This document shows, one piece after another, positions 19,730 to 56,339 of a stretch of 64,000 nucleotides of DNA. The notes beneath the pieces were generated by a model. It worked only from the letters and a program-made list of their open reading frames with translations, was not told where the DNA came from and did no database searches. The stretch spans positions 310,001 through 374,000 of the forward strand of contig JAVKOQ020000009.1 in the NCBI GenBank assembly GCA_031835245.2, in the 5' to 3' direction. The stretch comes from Balamuthia mandrillaris. Its lineage: Eukaryota. A program made the position numbers and the translations under genes. Numbering within the stretch: the stretch's first letter is position 1; the number at the start of each line of letters is the position of its first letter.

Positions 19730-20829
19730 CCACCAATTCCGTTTGTTGTTCGCAAGACAAGTCTCCTTTTAACATTACATTTTTCTGTTATTTCCCAACT
19801 GCTACTACTATTGACCAGGCAAATGCTCCACATCCCGTAGATGACCCTCTTTCTCCAGTTTAGCACGTTCAGCACCCAACGCACCATAACATTCGCCAAC
19901 CGTTGCACACTTTTCAATCCAGGTGCTGAGCATGGAGCGCTTCGGGACCTTGTTCACATCAAAGGCCCAGAGCATGGCCATCAACGGCCACACAAAGGCC
20001 TCGCCGACCCGCACCCTCCCTTCCAGCCCCTCCGGCACCACTTCGTGGCCATACTGTCCTTTGGCCGCTGCCAGAATGCAGCCGGTCAGCACCGAGCGAA
20101 AGCTCTGTCGCGAGTAGATATGTTGCACGCAGTCCTTGTAGCATTGAAAGCCCTCAGAGGTAGCTTCCACCGAGAGGCTCCCCAAGAAGCCACCCTTGTG
20201 AGTAAGCTCGGCAACCGCTCTCAGGGTGGAACCGTCCGAGACCCCATTGGTGCACCAAGTCCCACCACCAACAGCATCTTGTTGTTTTGATGAAGGCGAG
20301 GATCGTCCAGGGTGGCTACAGCTGTGATGGAGACGCAGTCCTCAATGGGGTCGCCCAGTCCGTCCTCGTCTCCGGCCATCAGAGAGTCCGAGCCGCCGAG
20401 GAAGTGCACTCGCTGCTGTCCATGACTATCTAAATAACAAGCAATTTGATATAATAATTGCATAGCTCTAATCCATGGATATTCTCCAGTCCTATCCTCT
20501 TGTTCTTTCCAATAAGCTTGTCGTTAAGTGCTGCTTCTTTCTCTTGACTATGCCATAATTGTAAGGCCAAGGGACGGAGTAAGTGCCATGATGTCCGTGC
20601 GGCTGCTGCTGCTGCTAACAAGAAAGCAAAATCATTCTTATTTATATACTACTCAGCATTGACCATCCATCCTAAATCCCATTGATCCCATCATCATCAC
20701 AGTCTCCTCCAAACAACGCGAAACACACCACTTATCGAGGAAGGAGCACATATGGATCTCTGGGGCGTAGTGCTTGCTTGGCACGCTCTCTGCGGTGACT
20801 CGTTTAACTTGCACCGTTCTCTTTGGTTC

Positions 20830-21094
20830 GAAACGGAGTTATCCACGAGAAACTGGGAGGCAAGAAGGTCTTCCGTTGCCCTCGTTGTCACCTGGAAGCG
20901 GACAGAGACATCCATGCGGCCAGGAACATCCTTTTGCGCTTTCTAGCTCGCCAGGACATCATTGTGGACGCGAAGGGAAAAGAAGAGCTGTACGGACAGG
21001 GTCTGGCAGCATTGGGTCCTACCCCCGCGAATGCATTGCCCTCTCGTGGTGCATTTGTGCAAGATTTGCAAAATGTGCAAGTTTAATGTAGGCG
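20830..21094 (+). mobile_element. 5'-truncated TnpB/Fanzor2 (IS607-like) element: nuclease C-terminus plus right end
   Basis: Encodes GVIHEKLGGKKVFRCPRCHLEADRDIHAARNILLRFL, the zinc-ribbon CxxC plus RuvC-III DRD..AARNI of TnpB/Fanzor. Ends at TTTAATGTAGGCG. Flanked by the direct repeat CGTTCTCTTTGGTTC (20815-20829, 21093-21107). Confidence 0.88.
21015..21094 (+). ncRNA. Putative Fanzor omega-RNA scaffold (copy 1)
   Basis: 80 nt overlapping the ORF 3' end. Hairpin CGCGAATGCATTGC/GTGGTGCATTTGTG, second hairpin TTGCA/TGCAA, and CCTAC near the 5' end complementary to terminal GTAGG. Homologous copy at 47554-47633. Confidence 0.7.
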
Positions 21095-21563
21095 TTCTCT
21101 TTGGTTCATCGGGAAGTTGTTCCTCAAAGACCACCGGCGCTTCTCCCTTTATTTCGTCCGTGTCCCCAAAGGAGTAGGACGCGATGACGACCTTCTTGCC
21201 AAGCCTTTTGAGTTCTGGATACAGTATCATGCTGTGCACAAAGTCGAAGCCTCCCCCACACCCGCACAGCATAACCGTTTGTACAGAGGGATCGGCCAGC
21301 CTAGTAACGAATGTTGGCATCAGGAAGGAACTTGGGGTTGCGGGGGAGGCCTTTCCATTACAGCGGCCGCCTTTTCCAGCCCTTTTTGCTTTTACTTGCT
21401 TTTTGCTTTGTCTTTCTTTTCCATCCTTGTTGTAACACCTTATTCTTCCCGTTATATAAGTACTTCATTTTTTGTTGTAAAGAAAAAGTTTAAAGTTCGA
21501 AGCCTGTTCAACGAACGGCAGCAATTGGAGCGAAACTGGGTCAACTGCACTTAACCATAACTG

Positions 21564-23732
21564 TTACGTCTTTGTCAGGGAACGCCGCCGTATCCTGCTG
21601 GACCTACGAACACTAGTGTTCACCTCAAAGCTGTTTTCCACTTGTGTCGTTTGTTCTGTTTCTTCCTCTTCCTCTTCCTCTTCTCCCTCCTCCTGTTTGG
21701 CTTGTAATGTTTTTCTTGTCTTGCCGGCTATCATTGTTGATGATCCGCTTTTCGTTTTTGTCTTTTGTTGCTGAAACACAGATAGTTCTGCTGCAAATAA
21801 TAGCGTATGTGCCCAGCCTGTGTTCTCTCTAAATGTTGTTCTACGTACAGGCCACCAAAGTATATCAAATATATATGGTACAAAGGTGAGGCCTAGAAAA
21901 GAAGGCGGAGACAGGCAAGTGAGAAAGTACCTGAAAAAGTCACCAACGCGCCTGTACATAGTTTCGTTGAGGGACCCTTTTCCTTTGCCTTGTAGCTTCC
22001 GCATGAATCGCTGTGCTATTTGCCATACATGAGTATCCACTGCAAGCAGCATAGCTTTACGTTAGTTGACAGAGAAAGAATACAGAGCAGCAGAGCAAAC
22101 CAGGTATAGCATCTTGCTTATCCAACGAACACAAAGCAATGCAATCTGCAACCTTCCTTCCAATTCCCTTCGTAACGACCAAGTCAGAACAGCGGATGCA
22201 AATATACCATCAGATATAACTTACCATCAATGATGTTAAACTTTTTTGCGCCTCTTCTCGAGTAACTTCATTGCTGCGAAGACTAGCCAACCAATCCTTT
22301 CCCTCTGATATTTCGCAATGAGACTTTTGGTGTTGACAGAAGGAGAGAAGAGGGAAGGAGAGCAGAGCAAAGGAGGGAGAGTGCGAAACCGGAAGAATTA
22401 TTGGCCAGTATTTGCTTGGCAGCAGCTGGAATGTACCGAGCACGGTAGCCAAAGCCTAGCTCTCGTAGACGTGACTCAGATACGTCGCATAGTTGTTGTA
22501 ACGTAGGAAAGGCGTGAAAAGGCATGCCCGTGCTGTTGGCTTTATGGTCTCCTGCTATTAAACAATCCCCGTATTCCTTGCATAGTGCTTCCACCATTTT
22601 CATGATACGTCCAATGTTGTTGTTTTGGGAGCATATGAAGCTAACCTTTAGTTATGCAGGGACGCCAAGTCAGTTATTCCGAAGTGGAGAGAGAGAGAGA
22701 GAGAGAGAGAGAGGCAGAGAGGCTGAGAGAGAGAGAGCTCACCAAGCATTCTAAGGGGTCCTGTCTAAGGAGGCGAAGGCCGTAGAAACGAGGGCCAATA
22801 TCGCGGAAATGAGAGAGAAGTGCAACGCTTTCGCTCTTCTTTTTATTATCCTTAGCGTTGGAAGCAGGAGCGTGTAGGGTGGTCCATTGAAGCCAAGCCT
22901 GCTGCATGGACGTGGTGTCCAGCTGGAAATAGTCTCGAAGAGCGGCCTCAGCTTGTGCTTCCATCGCAGCCTCCTCCTCCTCCTTCACCTCAGAGGAGGA
23001 AGGGGAAGAAGCGGCATCGGAGCATAGAAAGCGATAGTGTATGGTGCTCTCATCATGTTGGTGCAGGAAGAAAACAACACGTCCGATCACACCGCTCCAC
23101 ACAACCGCTTCTCCGTCACCTCCACGGCTACTCGAAGAAGAAGAGGCTGAAGAAGAAGAAGAAGAAGAGGGAGAAAAAGGGGAGAGTTGATGTGACCGCC
23201 AGCGGAAGCTCTGACCGGATTGAAGGGTAAGGCCCAGCCGCAGTTCGTTTGGGGCGCATAGTTTTAGCTGGCGCCAACGGAAGCCGTCCTCTTTCAACAG
23301 CAGCGACCCTTCTTTCCTCTCCAGGGTCTCCTCCTGCTTAACACCTTTCTCTAACTTTGTGGTGTTTTGTCTTTTGGAGGGTGACTCCCCTCCCACATCA
23401 GTGGCCTCCTCCTCAATCTCCCCGTGCTGGTGCTCCCTCTCCTCCTTCTTCCTTTTGTGGGGGATGCTCGCCGTTGGGCCTTCCCTTTGCTTCCTTCTCT
23501 TCTCCGCCATGTTCTTCTTCTTCTGCTTCGCAGTGGTCGCTGCTTCTTCTTCTTCCTCCCTAATGACGTGTTTGTGAGGTGCTGCTGCTGCTGGCCGCAG
23601 TGGTGCTCCTCTCCAGAGCCTTGGCCGCTCCCAGCACCGCTCCCCCGACCACCACAAGGAGGAGAAGGGCCTGCTGCTTGTTGTCCCTCTGCTTGGGGCC
23701 AGCAGCAGCAGCGCTGACACTCTTTTTTGCAT
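21564..23732 (-). CDS. OGG1: 8-oxoguanine DNA glycosylase
   Basis: ELRLGLTLQSGQSFRW, GLRLLRQDPLECL, FICSQNNNIGRI, LRELGFGYRARYI, GIGRKVADCIAL, VDTHVWQIA, GWAHTLLFAAEL. Confidence 0.95.
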
Positions 23733-23930: not shown

Positions 23931-26900
23931 TCAAGAAAGGGATAAAGAGGAACGGGAAGGGGAGGGAGAGGAGGAGGGTGAGGAGGAGTTGGAGTCAAAC
24001 AGCTTGAACTGAGAGAGCCAGCTGGAGCGATAGTCGGAACGGCATTTGACAAAGTCGAGCAGGTCCGCTCGGTCCATCTTGGCGAGGGCGCTGCTCGACA
24101 GCAGCTCCGACAATTGCTCAGGAGAGACCTGATGGATGTGGGCTACCTCCATCAGCATTGCAAACTTGTCGTTGAGGTTACTGTTCTTTATCTCTTCTTC
24201 TATGCACTTTTTGTACTCTTGTAGGTCCCTTTGTTGCAAACACAGTAAAGAGAAAATAGGTTGGTCAATTGAAAGAAGAAAGCACAAGAGAAACAGAAAG
24301 TGACCAGATCGCTATATTTGTACCTTTGCAACTTCACGCCTCCTAGCCCCTTGCTCACCGGATACTTTTTCAAGTGTGCCATAAGCACTCTTTTTGAAGG
24401 AAAGAAAATAATGAATACTATATGGAGCGGTCGAAGAGAGGGTGAGGAACGAATGTACCTAAAGACCTCGAGACCGTACTCCTCCAAAAAGCTTTGACAG
24501 TTGGCACCATCCAAGTTAGATTGTATGACGGAGACATCAGCCGCGATGGCAGCAACAGCCTGCGCGCAACCAGCGGTCACCTTGTCAATGGCCTCGAAAG
24601 CGTCATCGCTAAGACGAAAGTCTGGTTTCTTCTGCTTGCTTGACAATAACTTGCTCAGATCATTGCTCATCCGTGATAACCAAGACAACAATTAAGGGCG
24701 ATAGTCATATCCAAAACTGAAAAGAAGGAAGAATGAAAGAAGAAAACAAAAAGGATATAATTGAGACAACAATCAAGGCCTTGTGATATGAGATCCTCAA
24801 AATGGTTGAGAAGAGTGTTCTTCTTTTCGAGGCATTGATTTGAAACTGTGCGTGAGGATGACACATGTGGTAGCTATTGATGCGTTTGTTTGCGTTAAGT
24901 ACTTTGAGTTAAACAACCGAATAAAGATAATGTCGTACAATGAGAACATGGAAGTGCCGTTGGATGAGGATAACTATCTGATGGATTAAAATTAACATAG
25001 GTGAGTAAGCTCACACAAATGAATGTTTCTGCTGAAAGTGATATGGGGTGGGGCTGTGAGGCTACACAAGCGCCCGCCCATCACCCACACCACTTCCGTC
25101 GGCTCCATCGGGCAACGCTACGCAACGAGGTTCCGAAGAAGGATGTTGCGCGCTCCATTTACATCGCGATCCAGTCGTATCCCACATAGGAGTCGGCCAG
25201 GCGAGACAGCTAGAAATTTGCTGTCGAACCTCTGTCGACTTGCCCGAGGGAGCCAACGGGAAACGTGGGATGTTTTGGGAAAATACTCAGAAAAACGAAA
25301 TTTCACTTACCTGGTTCACTTGTTGCGTTATTTGGAAGAATGTCGTTGGGGAAGTGCTACTCTTTCTCTTTTTCAATTGCAGAAGGGCACTGAAAGAAGT
25401 TTATGAGCCAAAAAACAACTTGAAGAAAGCGGGTCCATATATACGTACTGTTCAAGAGCTGGACTGAGATATCTGTAGCCCAGGTACTCCAGTAACATCT
25501 CGAAAATTTGATAGAGATTCTGCGAGCTAAAAAGGGGCAACAACAATCCTTAGCGTTCTTTTCAACAATAAACGGCGAGAAGGAAACGTACATGTCTTCC
25601 TTGGAAGAAAGCTCCAAACAACGTTCCACAGCACCCTCACTGCAATGGAGAAAGGCAAAGATGGGTTCCAGCGAGGTTAGGGCTGTTACCGTTGCCAGTT
25701 TTGGTGTTTTTGAGTTTGTGGGTGCGCCGGGCCAACTTCGGGAAGCTCTATTCTTCTCTGCTTCCTGTGTCGAATGGAAACAAATTAGCCAGGCTCATGC
25801 ACAAACAACTCAAGCAAACAAACCTGTTGCAGCTGAGCCAAGTGATTCTCATAAAAGAGACGAAGGTATTTGGTCTCGTTTGAAATGTAGCTGGACATGT
25901 ACTTGTAGAATAAGGACTGCACCATGGAACTAAAATCAAACTGACCAATGTTATATTCTTGCAGAACCTTCACGAACTGACAAGTTTCTGCATGGGCCGA
26001 TTTTAAGATGCGGAGGTAAAACAACAGGGACTCGGGGGATGAGTCTCGAATGTTCAGCATCTTCTCCAAGAACATGCCGATCTACAGCCCGAAGAGAGAG
26101 TTAGAGAGAAATAGAAAGGAAAAAAAGTACTAAGTTAGAGGATGAGGAATGGGTAAATAATAGAGCTGCAATGGATAATACCCGTTGTTCGAAAATCCGT
26201 TGTGCCAACTCTCTCATGACAACTGCTGGATTAGGAAAAACCTTGCTTATGACCTCGTATTCATGCTTGCAAGCGTGCGTTATATCATAGAAGAATGCAT
26301 GTATTCTCGCATCCTCTTTAGTATCTTCCAGTTCGTTTGTGCTGATAGATAACGTTATAAGAGACGAGTAACAGAGATAGAGAGAGAGAGAGAGAGAGAG
26401 AACAATAAAATACCTAATTCTATGTTCACCTGCCTCTGCAAGGGCTGAATCCATATTGATACTCTCAGTATCGAAAAACATGTTCAACTTCATGATATAA
26501 TGCCGGATGCAAGACCCACAGCCATTGAATTCATTCAAGATCGAAGCAACTTCCTATAAAAGCACAAGAAGGATGAAGGTGAATATATGGGCGGTGCCAT
26601 GAATAAACAAATGAGGGCTTTGAATTGCAAGGTAGTACCTTCATCTTTGCATAGTCGTTGCGCTGAGAGGCTTCATCAAATTCCTGTAAGAGCTTGTTTT
26701 CCAACTTGTTACTTTCCTTCTCCACTGCTTCTTTTCCCTAAAGGGGACATAACCTCACCGTAAGCAAACCAATATTTGGGATGGAAATAGTACCATAAAG
26801 AAGGAGAGAGAGAGAGAGAGAAGAAGAAGAAGAAGAAGAAGAAGAAGAAGAAGAAGAAGAAGAACCTCTTTGGTGCGATCTAACAAATGCTCATTCAAGC

Positions 26901-47462: not shown

Positions 47463-47756
47463 TTGTTCACGCCAAAATTTCATCAAGGAATACAACGACT
47501 GGAAAGAAAAGGAAGGACCAAGACGGGTCCAGAAGCTGTTCAGTTCGTAGGAGCGCCTACATTAAACTTGCACATTTTGCAAATCTTGCACAAATGCACC
47601 ACAATGGGTGGATGCATTCACGGGTGTAGGACCTTGTATGAGCGCTTGTTAGTTTTACAGCAGACAATGATGGAAACCCTCAAAATGCAGGATGAGGCGA
47701 TCGCATTGGTGGACAAGCTGGAGGAAAGGAATCGCAAACAAAGAAAGTGGTTATGA
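47463..47756 (+). other. Short helical ORF or gene fragment carrying an in-frame 90-nt insertion
   Basis: Removing 47544-47633 restores EAVQLYERLLVLQQTMMETLKMQDEAIALVDKLEE, which reads as an amphipathic, TPR-like helix. Expression unknown. Confidence 0.35.
47554..47633 (-). ncRNA. Putative Fanzor omega-RNA scaffold (copy 2, ORF-less)
   Basis: The reverse complement, GGTCCTACACCCGTGAATGCATCCACCCATTGTGGTGCATTTGTGCAAGATTTGCAAAATGTGCAAGTTTAATGTAGGCG, aligns end to end with 21015-21094. The 3' part is identical and the differences cluster in and near hairpin 1. Confidence 0.8.
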
Positions 47757-49998: not shown

Positions 49999-50793
49999 AT
50001 GGACCACCACCAGCAGCACCACCACCACGAAGCGGAAGAACCGCCTCACCAGCAAAGAGCGGCGGCGGTGAGGTACGCCACGCAGCTGACCTATCCGCCA
50101 AGCCACTGGGCGCATGGCATCACCGTGGAGGCCCGCCAGGCGGACAGCCTCTACAGGGTGGGAGCTCTGTGGCATCGCGGAGAGGTCCCCGTGGTGGTGG
50201 CCTTGAACCCCACGGACAGCAGGGGTTACCGCTTGCTCTGCACCGTTACTGACCCGGAGGACGTCACCCGCACCTTCAACAAAGCGCCAACGGCCGAGCA
50301 AATGGCAGCTCTGGGCGCTGCCCTGGCCTTCATGGCTGTGCCTGTCTTCCAAGAGTTGGGCTTGGTGGCGCAGACCATGGTGCTGGGCAACAACTCCCAC
50401 AGCATGGAGAAAGAAGGAGGGGAGGGCGAGGAAGAGGAGGTGATGGTGGTGGGTCAGCCGCATGAGCCGCATCTCATCCATGGGCATGTTGTGGGGCGTG
50501 GCAACCCTCGTTGGGAGGTGGTCAAAGGGCTGCCCCTTGGTGGGCCACCTCCCGGTTCTCTCTTTCCCCTCAAGTCTCCGCATGAAGGTCAAAAGAGAGG
50601 GTGGACGGCAGAGCACGCGGCAGCCTTTCGCACTCGGCTGCAGGAACTAATCGAGAAACACGCCCACTTGGCTGCTTCTCTTTACCAACTTCTTCCTTCT
50701 CCCTCTTCCTCCTCCTCCTCCTCCTCCTCCTCCTCCTCTACCACAGCTTCTTCCTCCTCTGCCACAATAGCAACATCCAAAGACAACAACTGA
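49999..50793 (+). CDS. HIT-like domain hypothetical protein, single exon
   Basis: Long ORF with VALNPTDSRGYRLL...QTMVLGNNSH...HEPHLIHGHVVGRG, a HIT-like HxH motif. Confidence 0.55.
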   Translation: MDHHQQHHHHEAEEPPHQQRAAAVRYATQLTYPPSHWAHGITVEARQADSLYRVGALWHRGEVPVVVALNPTDSRGYRLLCTVTDPEDVTRTFNKAPTAEQMAALGAALAFMAVPVFQELGLVAQTMVLGNNSHSMEKEGGEGEEEEVMVVGQPHEPHLIHGHVVGRGNPRWEVVKGLPLGGPPPGSLFPLKSPHEGQKRGWTAEHAAAFRTRLQELIEKHAHLAASLYQLLPSPSSSSSSSSSSSSTTASSSSATIATSKDNN

Positions 50794-53834: not shown

Positions 53835-56219
53835 ATGATGGAAGACCAAACCGGGCAGGACCTCTCCTCCCAGCAGCTGGACCTCAGCAACGAGTTTTGG
53901 AAGGACATACCAGATGACCTTTTGGACAACCTTTACTTTGAACTAGAGTACGTTTACCTTGCTTCTGTATTCTTGTGTTAAAGAGGTCCTGTTTTGCCTT
54001 GTTGCGAAGCCATGCATAAAAGCACAAAAGAACCAAGAACATGCGGACGCTATCTTATTGACCTTTGTGATTCCAACGTTGTCGTACATAGACACACAGC
54101 AACACTTTCTTTGCCACAGACGAACCAGTTCTTGGAAGAAGAGGAAGAAGAGGAGTACCAGCGGTCCCAAATATCACACTCTGCTGTAGCTGGCGTCGCT
54201 GCTGAACAGGCCTATCACCCACACTCACATCTAAAGAGAGGACACAGCGGAACCATCGATCCATTCCACTTGCAAGCACAGGGCTCTTCCTCTTCAACTT
54301 CCTCTTCATCTTCCTTATCCCAACAGCAGCAGTTTGAACAAATGGCACAGCAACAACGGCACATGCTCCGTAAGCAGCGAGAAGGAGGCTCTAGGGAAGA
54401 AGAGGAGGAAGAGGAGGAGGAAGAGGAGGAAGAACCCCAACCACCACGCAGATTGGAGGAAGAAGAACTATCAAGCGAGAACGAACAGGACTTGATGGAA
54501 GGAAACACCACTTTTCCCTTTGCCACAGAAGTATTCACACAGGAGCAAGCGAAGGCTCGGCTCGTCATCGACCAAATTCATCAACTTTTCCTGCAGCAGG
54601 AAAACCAGTTGGATCAGCTCAAGCAAAGTCAACAACAGATAATAGTGCAGCCTTCCAAAGAAGCCATTGCAGAACTCAATACCCAGCTGGCGAACCTTGA
54701 CCAACAGATCGTTGTCGAGCTTACAGAGGCTCAGAATATACACAGCAGTGTCATCCTTGACCCCGCGGCTTTGCACCAGCTGCGAACATTGCTATCCCGG
54801 CTTAAGATTCAACAACAGCGAATCAGCCTTTACCAGGATGAACTTTCAAATCTTCTTCATCCTCGCACGCCCACTCCATGGTCTGCCTCTCCTTATCTCA
54901 CTCTCGCTTTTTTTCTGCTTCTTGGTTGACAAATTACCCATTTTTTTCAAATTGGCATTATTCAACCATAGCATTGCAGCGCTAGCTATTACAGAGCAAC
55001 CCACTCCCCAAGTGTTGTTTAAAGGAAAGACTCTGGAGGATGCCTATGCCCTCGTTCTGTTAACGGGCGCAAATGTGAATATCCAAAGCATAGGCAAGGT
55101 TCGAGCTGTGCTTGTGGCTGATGAAAAGATTGGCAAGTCCAAGAAGCCAGTAGAGAATGACACCCAAACTATGGATGCATTGAAGCGCATATCCTTCTTC
55201 CACGGCATCAAGGTCAACGTTTCAACCAGAATGTCGATGGTTTACCTCAAATTTGCGGTACCGATACAACTCGCGAACAATGACGGCATTCTTCACACCA
55301 TAGAAAGTTCCGGCTCATACCCCATCATAGTTATCACTAATGAAAGCCAGTGGTGCGAGGCTGCCGGCAAGCTACTTCTGTTTGAGGCGTTTACATCTCA
55401 GGTAATTTTTATTAATCCTTTTCTCCTCTTCCTCTTCTCTCTCTCTCTCTCTCTCTCTCAGGTCTGATTCTTCTGTGTGGCGATAGGACGAAGTACCTTG
55501 GCCACTGTTAGCAAATGTAACCCACACCCATTTTTTGAAAGCAACAAGGCAAGAGGCCAGCAATCCATCACGCAGCCTCAGCAACGCTGAGTTTCAATAT
55601 CTCCACTACAAATTCTTCGGTATGTTTTCATTCTCCTGAACGAATGATTGGTATGGCCCTGACTTAACTTCCATTCAGGAGGGCAAGCACACGTGACTAA
55701 GGTGCAAGCTGGGAGGTTTTGGTATTGGTTTGGTCAGGTTGTACAGAGTCTACGTTTTAAGCGACATATCGCCAATCTGTGGTTCACTGGGTGCGTCTCT
55801 TTTTCTCCTACAATCACGTTCTACAACACCTTGTTTTTCACTTACATCAATTACAATCAAAACTAAGGTTGATCTATGGATTCATACCAAAACATGTTTG
55901 CAACGAGCTGTTGACAGACGAAGAAATAGGAACGTTCATAATCCGCTTTAGCGAAAGTTATCCAGGCCTCTTTGCAGTGGCCTACGTGGACGACGACGAG
56001 GCAGAAAGAGTAAAGCATTACCTGGTGAAGCCTGAGGACATCAGCTCAAACAAGAGCTTGCCAGACTTTTTGAGAGAGAAACCTCAGTTCCTGTGGCTGA
56101 AGCAGCTGGACCCAACCACAGGTGAACTTCGCAAGTTCCCCAAAGACGCGGTACTCAAGGACTACTATTCCAAGCGCCAGCGATCTGGCAAGCCCACCAA
56201 CGGCTATGTCCTCTTGTAA
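53835..56219 (+). CDS. STAT transcription factor (Dictyostelium-type)
   Basis: Coiled coil, ALAITEQPTPQVLFK, PIIVITNESQWCEAAGKLL, SH2 (LIYGFIPK..LLTDEEIGTFIIRFSESYPGLFAVAYV..VKHYLV), C-terminal phospho-Tyr motif NGYVLL. Confidence 0.92.
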
Positions 56220-56309
56220 TTTTCCTCTCCCTCCTGTGGGAATTTACAACAGGGCATTCCTCTTTTACTATGTGATATTTATCAAAAGATAACGCTTATG
56301 CTTATGTCT

Positions 56310-56339
56310 TTTGCCACACTTCAAGATTTAATGTAGGCG
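56310..56339 (+). mobile_element. Possible degraded right-end fragment of the same Fanzor family
   Basis: CAAGATTTAATGTAGGCG versus the scaffold terminus CAAGTTTAATGTAGGCG, in the intergenic gap between STAT and DHX16. Confidence 0.4.

Follow-up and report, generated by a model that had tools for sequence, protein, structure and literature searches.

A 278-nt insert in a DUF1152 gene of Balamuthia mandrillaris consists of the front-truncated end of an IS607-type Fanzor2 element and its guide-RNA scaffold, and is flanked on both sides by copies of its own predicted target. The cassette is real and recurrent. It derives from a Fanzor2/IS607-type element and is not a normal insertion, as the 13-nt duplication and the verified empty allele show. 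We think it probable that a Fanzor cut at the empty allele left this scar when DNA-templated repair copying stopped early.

The focal cassette and its empty alleles

Coordinates refer to the window, the whole 64-kb stretch of DNA that was analysed. The features are as follows.

19808..21272, minus strand: host DUF1152 gene (PF06626), broken in the window allele
20398..20734, no strand assigned: second lesion, about 334 nt of other DNA in place of host residues 89-131 (43 codons)
20814..20816, plus strand: CCG, predicted TAM; the CG within it is the core dinucleotide, which is found again at the element end
20817..20829, plus strand: left copy of the target, 13 nt, equal to the first 13 nt of the predicted guide; single copy in the empty alleles
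20830..20839, plus strand: 5' junction, 10 nt of filler or variant sequence; other listed copies depart from the window sequence at 20840
20832..21086, plus strand: C-terminal end of a truncated Fanzor2, from the second half of the zinc finger through the RuvC-III RD motif to a tail that overlaps the scaffold
21014..21094, plus strand: predicted omegaRNA scaffold core, ending in GCG; fold z -2.8, ends the same in relatives
21095..21107, plus strand: right copy of the target (13-mer), host flank and predicted guide start, placed from TnpB/Fanzor biology (PMC13565253; PMC10711439)
47554..47633, minus strand: locus 2, 80-nt scaffold copy with a partial scar
56295..56339, plus strand: locus 3, decayed scaffold end with no clear duplication

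An earlier note on this DNA had described a truncated Fanzor end and scaffold lying between two target copies, and this layout is confirmed. The direct repeat is exact over 15 nt (CG and a 13-mer), occupies 20815-20829 and 21093-21107 at a spacing of 278 nt, and its 13-mer would recur at this position by chance with p of about 5e-6. By its match to the PF07282 profile (E 7e-7) the insert encodes the zinc-finger end of a TnpB/Fanzor protein. The RuvC-III RD motif is in frame, and the first half of the zinc finger is present in the continuations of other copies. The left element end is absent, the insert beginning inside the zinc-finger coding region, and the stop codon of the fragment (21084-21086) stands 8 nt before the element end, GTAGGCG, at 21094. 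The first 10 nt of the insert (20830-20839) have no match in the other copies listed; inspection of the sequence at the 5' junction gives TTC/GAA, a 3-nt fold-back.

The predicted scaffold comprises a small hairpin, the loop of which (21018-21022) can pair with 21088-21092 as a pseudoknot, and two stem-loops. The last 85 nt of the element fold better than 199 of 200 shuffled sequences. All cells of the 5-bp pseudoknot pair in five sequences, with one compensatory change, a score reached by 55 of 500 shuffles and not significant alone. A search of Rfam returned four weak matches to the scaffold, all far below the gathering score. No TnpA (serine recombinase) was found in the 64-kb window.

The earlier note had proposed a search for empty alleles, and these exist. 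Two runs from other studies, X12 (unspliced, DNA) and X6 (spliced, RNA), have contigs from which precisely 278 nt are missing. An intron was considered for the skip in X6 and rejected, as no slide of the joint gives CT..AC ends and the DNA run has the same skip. In X12 the joint is shifted by one base (14 rather than 15 shared letters) at window position 20815, which may reflect a silent wobble-base change that destroys the CG motif and makes the allele resistant to cutting. Deletion of the 278 nt yields the peptide EPKRT-VQVKRVTAES, identical to that of the intact annotated protein P0010. The suggestion that this deletion restores the host frame is therefore correct locally and fails for the rest of the allele, because the window allele also lacks residues 89-131.

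This second lesion lies 80 nt from the TAM and is present in runs X1 and X2 and absent from X6 and X12, the X6 contig departing from the window at its edge, 20735. No repeat of the lesion DNA (20398-20734) was found elsewhere in the window. The locus-tag prefix of P0010 is also that of the protein reading through locus 2, and the window allele and an intact empty allele are therefore probably both present in one assembly. The annotated ogg1 model P0009 (window 20946-23510) is an erroneous fusion with the broken DUF1152 gene that enters the cassette antisense. In X2 a 65-nt deletion (20774-20838; one contig, with 31 letters on the short side) removes the TAM and left copy, and an opposite-strand joint lies in the right flank (21143/21304); from these two changes the focal locus looks repeatedly rearranged.

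The cassette family and its relatives

The cassette belongs to a multi-copy family in which the 3' ends are fixed and the 5' breaks varied. Summed contig depth climbs towards the element end in all four runs. In X12 the flank has a depth of 46, the ORF one of about 300 and the end itself one of 2037. These values are not copy numbers, and contig depth shows that there are many more 3' ends than ORF pieces. Among the rows listed, right-hand loose ends fall at 21094-21097 and lead into diverse flanks (agreement between contigs 0.46-0.65). The 5' breaks give inserts of 36, 80, 125, 148 and 265 nt, and of about 675 nt in P0119. Thymine is the first base after the element end in 21 of 33 contigs among those listed, with rows overlapping between runs, and in seven of nine X12 right flanks (p 0.001). 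Pieces of the scaffold and of the 3' part of the ORF occur in spliced (RNA) contigs of X6 and X11. In one scaffold subfamily (position 47603; X6, X11 and X12, in spliced contigs) the middle stem-loop differs and yet, judged by eye, remains paired.

P0119 is encoded on another contig. The antisense reading of this longer copy fits a Fanzor2 RuvC domain with the alternative catalytic Glu, and is compatible with the DE-YTSKTC of homologs (score 357 against 40-71 for eight shuffles, at the protein level only). This Glu is placed six residues before the zinc finger, in a region outside the focal window fragment. In the P0119 gene model the 3' half of Fanzor is inverted and fused to an N-terminal half in sense orientation, which carries HTH_OrfB_IS605; the RuvC-I middle is missing. 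Protein searches returned no intact Fanzor ORF of the cassette family. One gave eight distant matches among 137 candidates, another gave relatives that were all at most 76% identical among the best 150 of 429 representatives listed, and a third gave one rearranged copy. The same searches gave no copy of the family covering the RuvC-I DPG and no TnpA. The exact scaffold motif had no match in viral contigs and none in metagenome contigs, and none of 301 candidate stretches for P0119 in viral contigs was confirmed.

A scan with the homolog P0133 led to eight metagenome loci, which were fetched. A resolvase with a MerR HTH, that is an IS607 TnpA, is present in all four of those scanned, and the RuvC-I DPG in all four relatives checked. 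The scaffolds of L003, L005 and L007 have the 5' hairpin and 3' end of the focal scaffold, with one compensatory change in the predicted pseudoknot. Identity over the N-terminal half is 47-59% for L001, L005 and L006, and the loci are relatives and not members of the same family. CCG, the predicted TAM, is the left junction in all three full-length relatives for which a left end was found (L004, L005 and L007 start directly after it), and L005 and L007 finish in GCG. A matched core dinucleotide, CG before the target and again at the element end, is thus common to L005, L007 and the focal copy. These sequences support a CG core and a predicted CCG TAM independently of the earlier note, which had given CCG as the TAM of NlovFz2 (Saito et al., 2023; PMC10432273).

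L005 (266-2403) and L007 (2593-3965) are full IS607-type elements with a CG core in metagenome contigs. The right flanks of both resemble the start of the left end, hinting at a target preference of TnpA. The T that follows CG at the cassettes resembles the TT with which the left end begins, and the insertion sites of the cassettes may thus have been chosen by the transposase. Neither L005 nor L007 has a duplication (the longest common stretches are 4 and 5 nt). IS607 elements move as double-stranded DNA circles and leave no target-site duplication, or TSD (PMC13565253; bioRxiv 2023.11.20.567912). The view that the cassette is not the product of ordinary IS607 transposition is upheld by these relatives without duplication, by the recurrence of the CCG/CG motif, by scars at other copies and by the absence of poly(A) from the window loci and the flank rows listed.

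The earlier note expected a guide-matching upstream repeat at the other copies, and this was borne out in part. Junctions were compared by eye from the loose-end rows listed. Seven 5' junctions are readable, and three of them, including the focal one, have a clear motif and duplication (13, 13 and 18 nt); two are partial, one is unclassified and one has no duplication. A CG at 9-19 nt before the junction is weak evidence alone (background 37%), so matched duplications were used as the criterion. The X12 junction at 47592 was left out (two contigs, unreadable consensus).

Two of the three clear scars rest on consensus rows and not on single contigs. The second is an X6 copy in which CCG and 13 nt precede a 36-nt scaffold end. 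The X6 right-flank consensus (six contigs) matches this 13-mer at 12 of 13 positions, a level reached by unrelated flanks in none of 200,000 simulations, and the X2 consensus (four contigs) matches it at 10 of 13 (25 of 200,000; 1e-4). A 12/13 match is unlikely to arise from one unweighted member (0.001), and more than one X6 contig may carry this guide. The third scar is an X12 copy with ACG and 18 nt; three X12 contigs begin with the first 3 nt of this stretch, and their consensus matches nine of the next 15 (p 0.004).

At locus 2, GCG (47643-47645) adjoins 9 nt (47634-47642) that match the guide (47545-47553) at seven of nine positions; its left copy leaves the host frame intact, and its scaffold has a young appearance. 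No empty-allele joint at locus 2 is found among 15 joints listed. The other partial case is P0119, where the tripeptide beside the element end is met again some 11 residues beyond the 5' break. This is compatible with at least 7 nt after CCG, at the protein level and within a gene model that may be spliced. The unclassified junction, from X6, has its nearest CG 26 nt away, and its right flank is not among the rows listed. The junction with no clear duplication is locus 3, which is 18 letters longer in run X11. Six guides could be read at the nucleotide level, and in this small sample none of the 15 pairs shares more than 3 nt.

Other features of the window deserve mention. At locus 2, contigs of X2 and X12 leave the window sequence at 47634 and 47639 and continue for at least another 752 and 1073 letters; these may belong to an empty allele, the window allele having suffered a deletion of its own, or may be other DNA. 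Contigs of the same runs also leave the window allele at about 47470, and roughly 1 kb of a plus-strand gene may be absent from the window around 47471-47640. A fragment of a second, different Fanzor/TnpB family lies on the minus strand at 24975-25190. It is a truncated zinc-finger/RD end (profile E 7e-9) with a structured 3' region (z -2.3) and an apparent end TCCATCAG, and no duplication was found at it. At 50407 and 54151-54154 contigs of X2, X6 and X11 join backwards with short filler, probably at a common low-complexity repeat.

Proposed aborted homing and the alternatives

Abortive homing, one of two routes put forward in the earlier note, is the best of the models that we weighed. TnpA would insert a full element at the focal CG, and the right flank would thereby become the guide. 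Fanzor would then cut the empty sister (after excision) or an empty homolog 13-19 nt past the TAM, and the TAM-distal end would invade the filled copy and copy inward through the guide, the scaffold and part of the ORF. Synthesis would abort at this stage and the new strand would be end-joined to the TAM-side end, which would still hold the TAM and 13 nt. The product would be without a left end and hence beyond excision by TnpA, and cassettes of this kind would accumulate. The bias towards the right end would follow if Fanzor keeps hold of the TAM-side end after cutting. Cas12a retains this end. The product, keeping the TAM and 13 nt, could be cut again, and the 65-nt deletion in X2 is such as a second cut would leave. 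Homing of this kind would keep or spread a guide locus at an occupied site and would create no new sites by itself.

Two features of the focal cassette shape this model. The guide is the local flank of the empty allele, and the simplest donor is therefore a full element at the same site on the sister or homolog. A target duplication of guide length requires both an empty and a filled template. The duplications of 9-18 nt overlap the Fanzor2 cut sites reported at 9-21: after nucleotide 19 for NlovFz2, at 9-14 and 17-18 for MmeFz2 (PMC10432273) and at 15-21 for the Apm enzyme (bioRxiv 2023.06.13.544871). The fit is loose, since NlovFz2, the enzyme with a CCG TAM, cuts after nucleotide 19 and not 13, and trimming must be assumed. 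A Fanzor2 guide of 11-13 nt suffices (PMC10432273).

It counts against homing that only three of the seven readable junctions have a clear duplication, and that the second truncated Fanzor family in the window has none. Contigs of the four runs, which break in the repeat, contain no filled allele with a longer element at the focal site, and no full-length donor was seen at any scar site. P0010 makes it probable that an intact empty allele, with the target complete, is present in the same assembly, so that cutting must either be infrequent or have ceased. The Chlamydomonas Fanzor gave no cut in vitro (bioRxiv 2023.06.13.544871), and neither an intact Fanzor ORF nor a TnpA of the cassette family turned up in the searches described above.

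An origin independent of Fanzor, by faulty TnpA integration or by a chance break or template switch between the filled and empty alleles, appears unlikely, although it has points in its favour. All the duplications start at the CG used by TnpA, 21 of the 33 right flanks among those listed begin with T as does the left end of the relatives, and an active Fanzor in this host is presumed from sequence. A serine recombinase, however, exchanges strands at the dinucleotide with no TSD (PMC13565253; bioRxiv 2023.11.20.567912), and random breaks would not cluster at 9-18 nt. In Chlamydomonas reinhardtii, moreover, the scar accompanies Helitron-borne Fanzor1 and is almost never seen on Helitrons that lack Fanzor: TSD-bearing loci make up 70%, 57% and 10% for CRe-1, CRe-2 and CRe-3 against 1/200 for the Fanzor-less Helitron-1N1 (PMC3627910). 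A scar found across transposase types and almost absent where there is no Fanzor identifies Fanzor, and not the transposase, as the common factor.

The second route of the earlier note, RNA-templated capture, is disfavoured, and we regard it as quite unlikely even at the allelic site. The target strand's 3' end, paired with the guide, would prime reverse transcription through the scaffold and the RNA upstream. The right-end polarity would then be accounted for directly, and the scaffold and ORF 3' pieces in spliced contigs of X6 and X11 are in keeping with such a template. The copies, however, extend 265 and about 675 nt into the ORF with differing break points and no common 5' limit, so that this route would call for a long mRNA and for a reverse transcriptase supplied from elsewhere. 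In Chlamydomonas, copies that contain RuvC retain introns (bioRxiv 2023.06.13.544871).

The earlier note further proposed that guide loci spread without a transposase, and on this point the evidence is unfavourable. The focal guide is the flank of the empty allele, none of 15 guide pairs shares more than 3 nt and the flanks are diverse, and T is favoured after CG. We consider it very unlikely that Fanzor cut partly matching sites into which a cassette with its guide was copied from another locus, with no part played by TnpA. The two mismatches in nine between the guide and left copy of locus 2, where the host frame is kept and the scaffold looks young, are what such copying might leave; they could equally stem from a diverged donor haplotype or later mutation. 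Spread of this kind would need a guide match of only 11-13 nt (PMC10432273), about one perfect 11-nt site behind CG is expected per guide in an assumed 50 Mb, and the 12/13 match in X6 could reflect a guide present in two or more contigs. The broader idea, that Fanzor2 writes its guide cassette into new, partly matching sites, the end of an off-target cut priming copying from RNA or from an ectopic DNA template, also seems improbable to us. The new flank would then extend the guide, and the hints are locus 2, with its 2/9 mismatches, and the X6 guide that is possibly shared between contigs.

A 5' truncation and a duplication of 13-18 nt are typical of LINE copies. Plain LINE-driven retroposition of a Fanzor transcript is nevertheless highly improbable: poly(A) tails, named in the earlier note as a sign against its reading, and simple-repeat tails are absent from the three window loci and from the flank rows listed, and the duplication begins right at the element end and no donor guide has come with it, although the guide RNA extends 14-15 nt past that end (PMC13565253).

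Related systems and significance

The closest parallel known to us is found in the non-autonomous Fanzor1 elements CRe-1, CRe-2 and CRe-3 of C. reinhardtii, whose 5'-truncated copies have 7-19 bp TSDs after TTTT (Bao & Jurka, 2013; PMC3627910). They share with the cassette a fixed 3' end, varied 5' truncation, a variable TSD directly after the target motif and full-length copies with no TSD. They differ in that Fanzor1 there is carried on an HUH Helitron2 with a TTTT target, whereas the cassette is a Fanzor2 of IS607 type with a CG core and no rolling circle. Neither Helitron2 ends nor an HUH transposase were met with here; the relatives carry a serine recombinase and their ends are IS607-like. 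Bao & Jurka credited the CRe layout to rolling-circle copying. Jiang et al. (bioRxiv 2023.06.13.544871) reported that the CRe small RNA extends into the TSD and kept the rolling-circle reading; the Chlamydomonas Fanzor gave no cleavage in vitro in the same work. Craig (2023; PMC10288648) tentatively suggested an HUH transposase together with a Fanzor cut.

Among IS607 and IS607EU elements (CboIStron, ISXfa1, ACa-1/2, ISvMimi and NlovFz2) we find the same overlap of the zinc-finger/RuvC end with the right-end RNA, a predicted pseudoknot, a matched dinucleotide at both ends and a 3-nt TAM (CCG in NlovFz2). The known elements are two-ended and have no TSD, whereas the cassette has a 13-nt duplication, a core of CG instead of GG, and neither a left end nor TnpA. 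In bacteria TnpB restores excised IS607 copies (bioRxiv 2023.11.20.567912; PMC13565253), and TnpB homing resembles our model in the guide from the right flank, the cut at the empty allele and repair from the filled copy. Restoration in bacteria was shown to be complete, whereas the cassette would be an incomplete product in a eukaryote, deduced from sequence only. In abortive gap repair of P and Ac/Ds elements, interrupted copying from the sister or homolog produces defective elements. There the break results from excision by the transposase and both ends are usually kept, whereas the cassette keeps one end only and is anchored at the TAM. Ghost Fanzor loci, like the cassettes, are protein-less guide-RNA loci present in many copies per genome, but the Spu ghosts run from inverted repeat to inverted repeat, and the cassettes lack a left end and have a target duplication (Saito et al., 2023; PMC10432273).

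The earlier note knew of no description of such a cassette. For Fanzor2 this stands: in literature that included few subscription papers and no supplements, we found no account of this scar or of any scar interpreted as aborted Fanzor homing, and no report on Fanzor in Balamuthia. No such Fanzor2 scar appears in the available portions of Yoon (2023; PMC10711439), PMC10432273, the IStron preprint (2023.11.20.567912) or PMC13565253. In general terms the claim does not hold, as the CRe-1/2/3 layout (PMC3627910) and the idea of a cut (PMC10288648) had been published. Loci are tabulated in the supplements of Bao & Jurka and of Saito et al., which may affect how novel the scar is.

The native role of Fanzor was stated to be unknown (Saito et al., 2023; PMC10432273), and the available portions of a 2026 review (PMC13565253) list evidence of homing only for prokaryotic TnpB and IscB. 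If the scars are aborted homing, they are a trace left in nature by Fanzor acting in the host that carries it. That the scar occurs in a clade with a serine recombinase takes away the explanation by rolling circle that has been given for the Chlamydomonas copies since 2013, and the nuclease is indicated instead. Should guide cassettes be written into new sites, guide loci would colonise a eukaryotic genome without a transposase. Aborted homing itself offers a possible origin for stand-alone guide loci and a way in which such elements knock out host genes. If it is correct, every genome with Fanzor would hold a readable record of cuts made in vivo, in which the TAM could be read from the motif, the position of the cut from the length of the duplication and the lengths of repair tracts from the break points, with no need to purify the enzyme.
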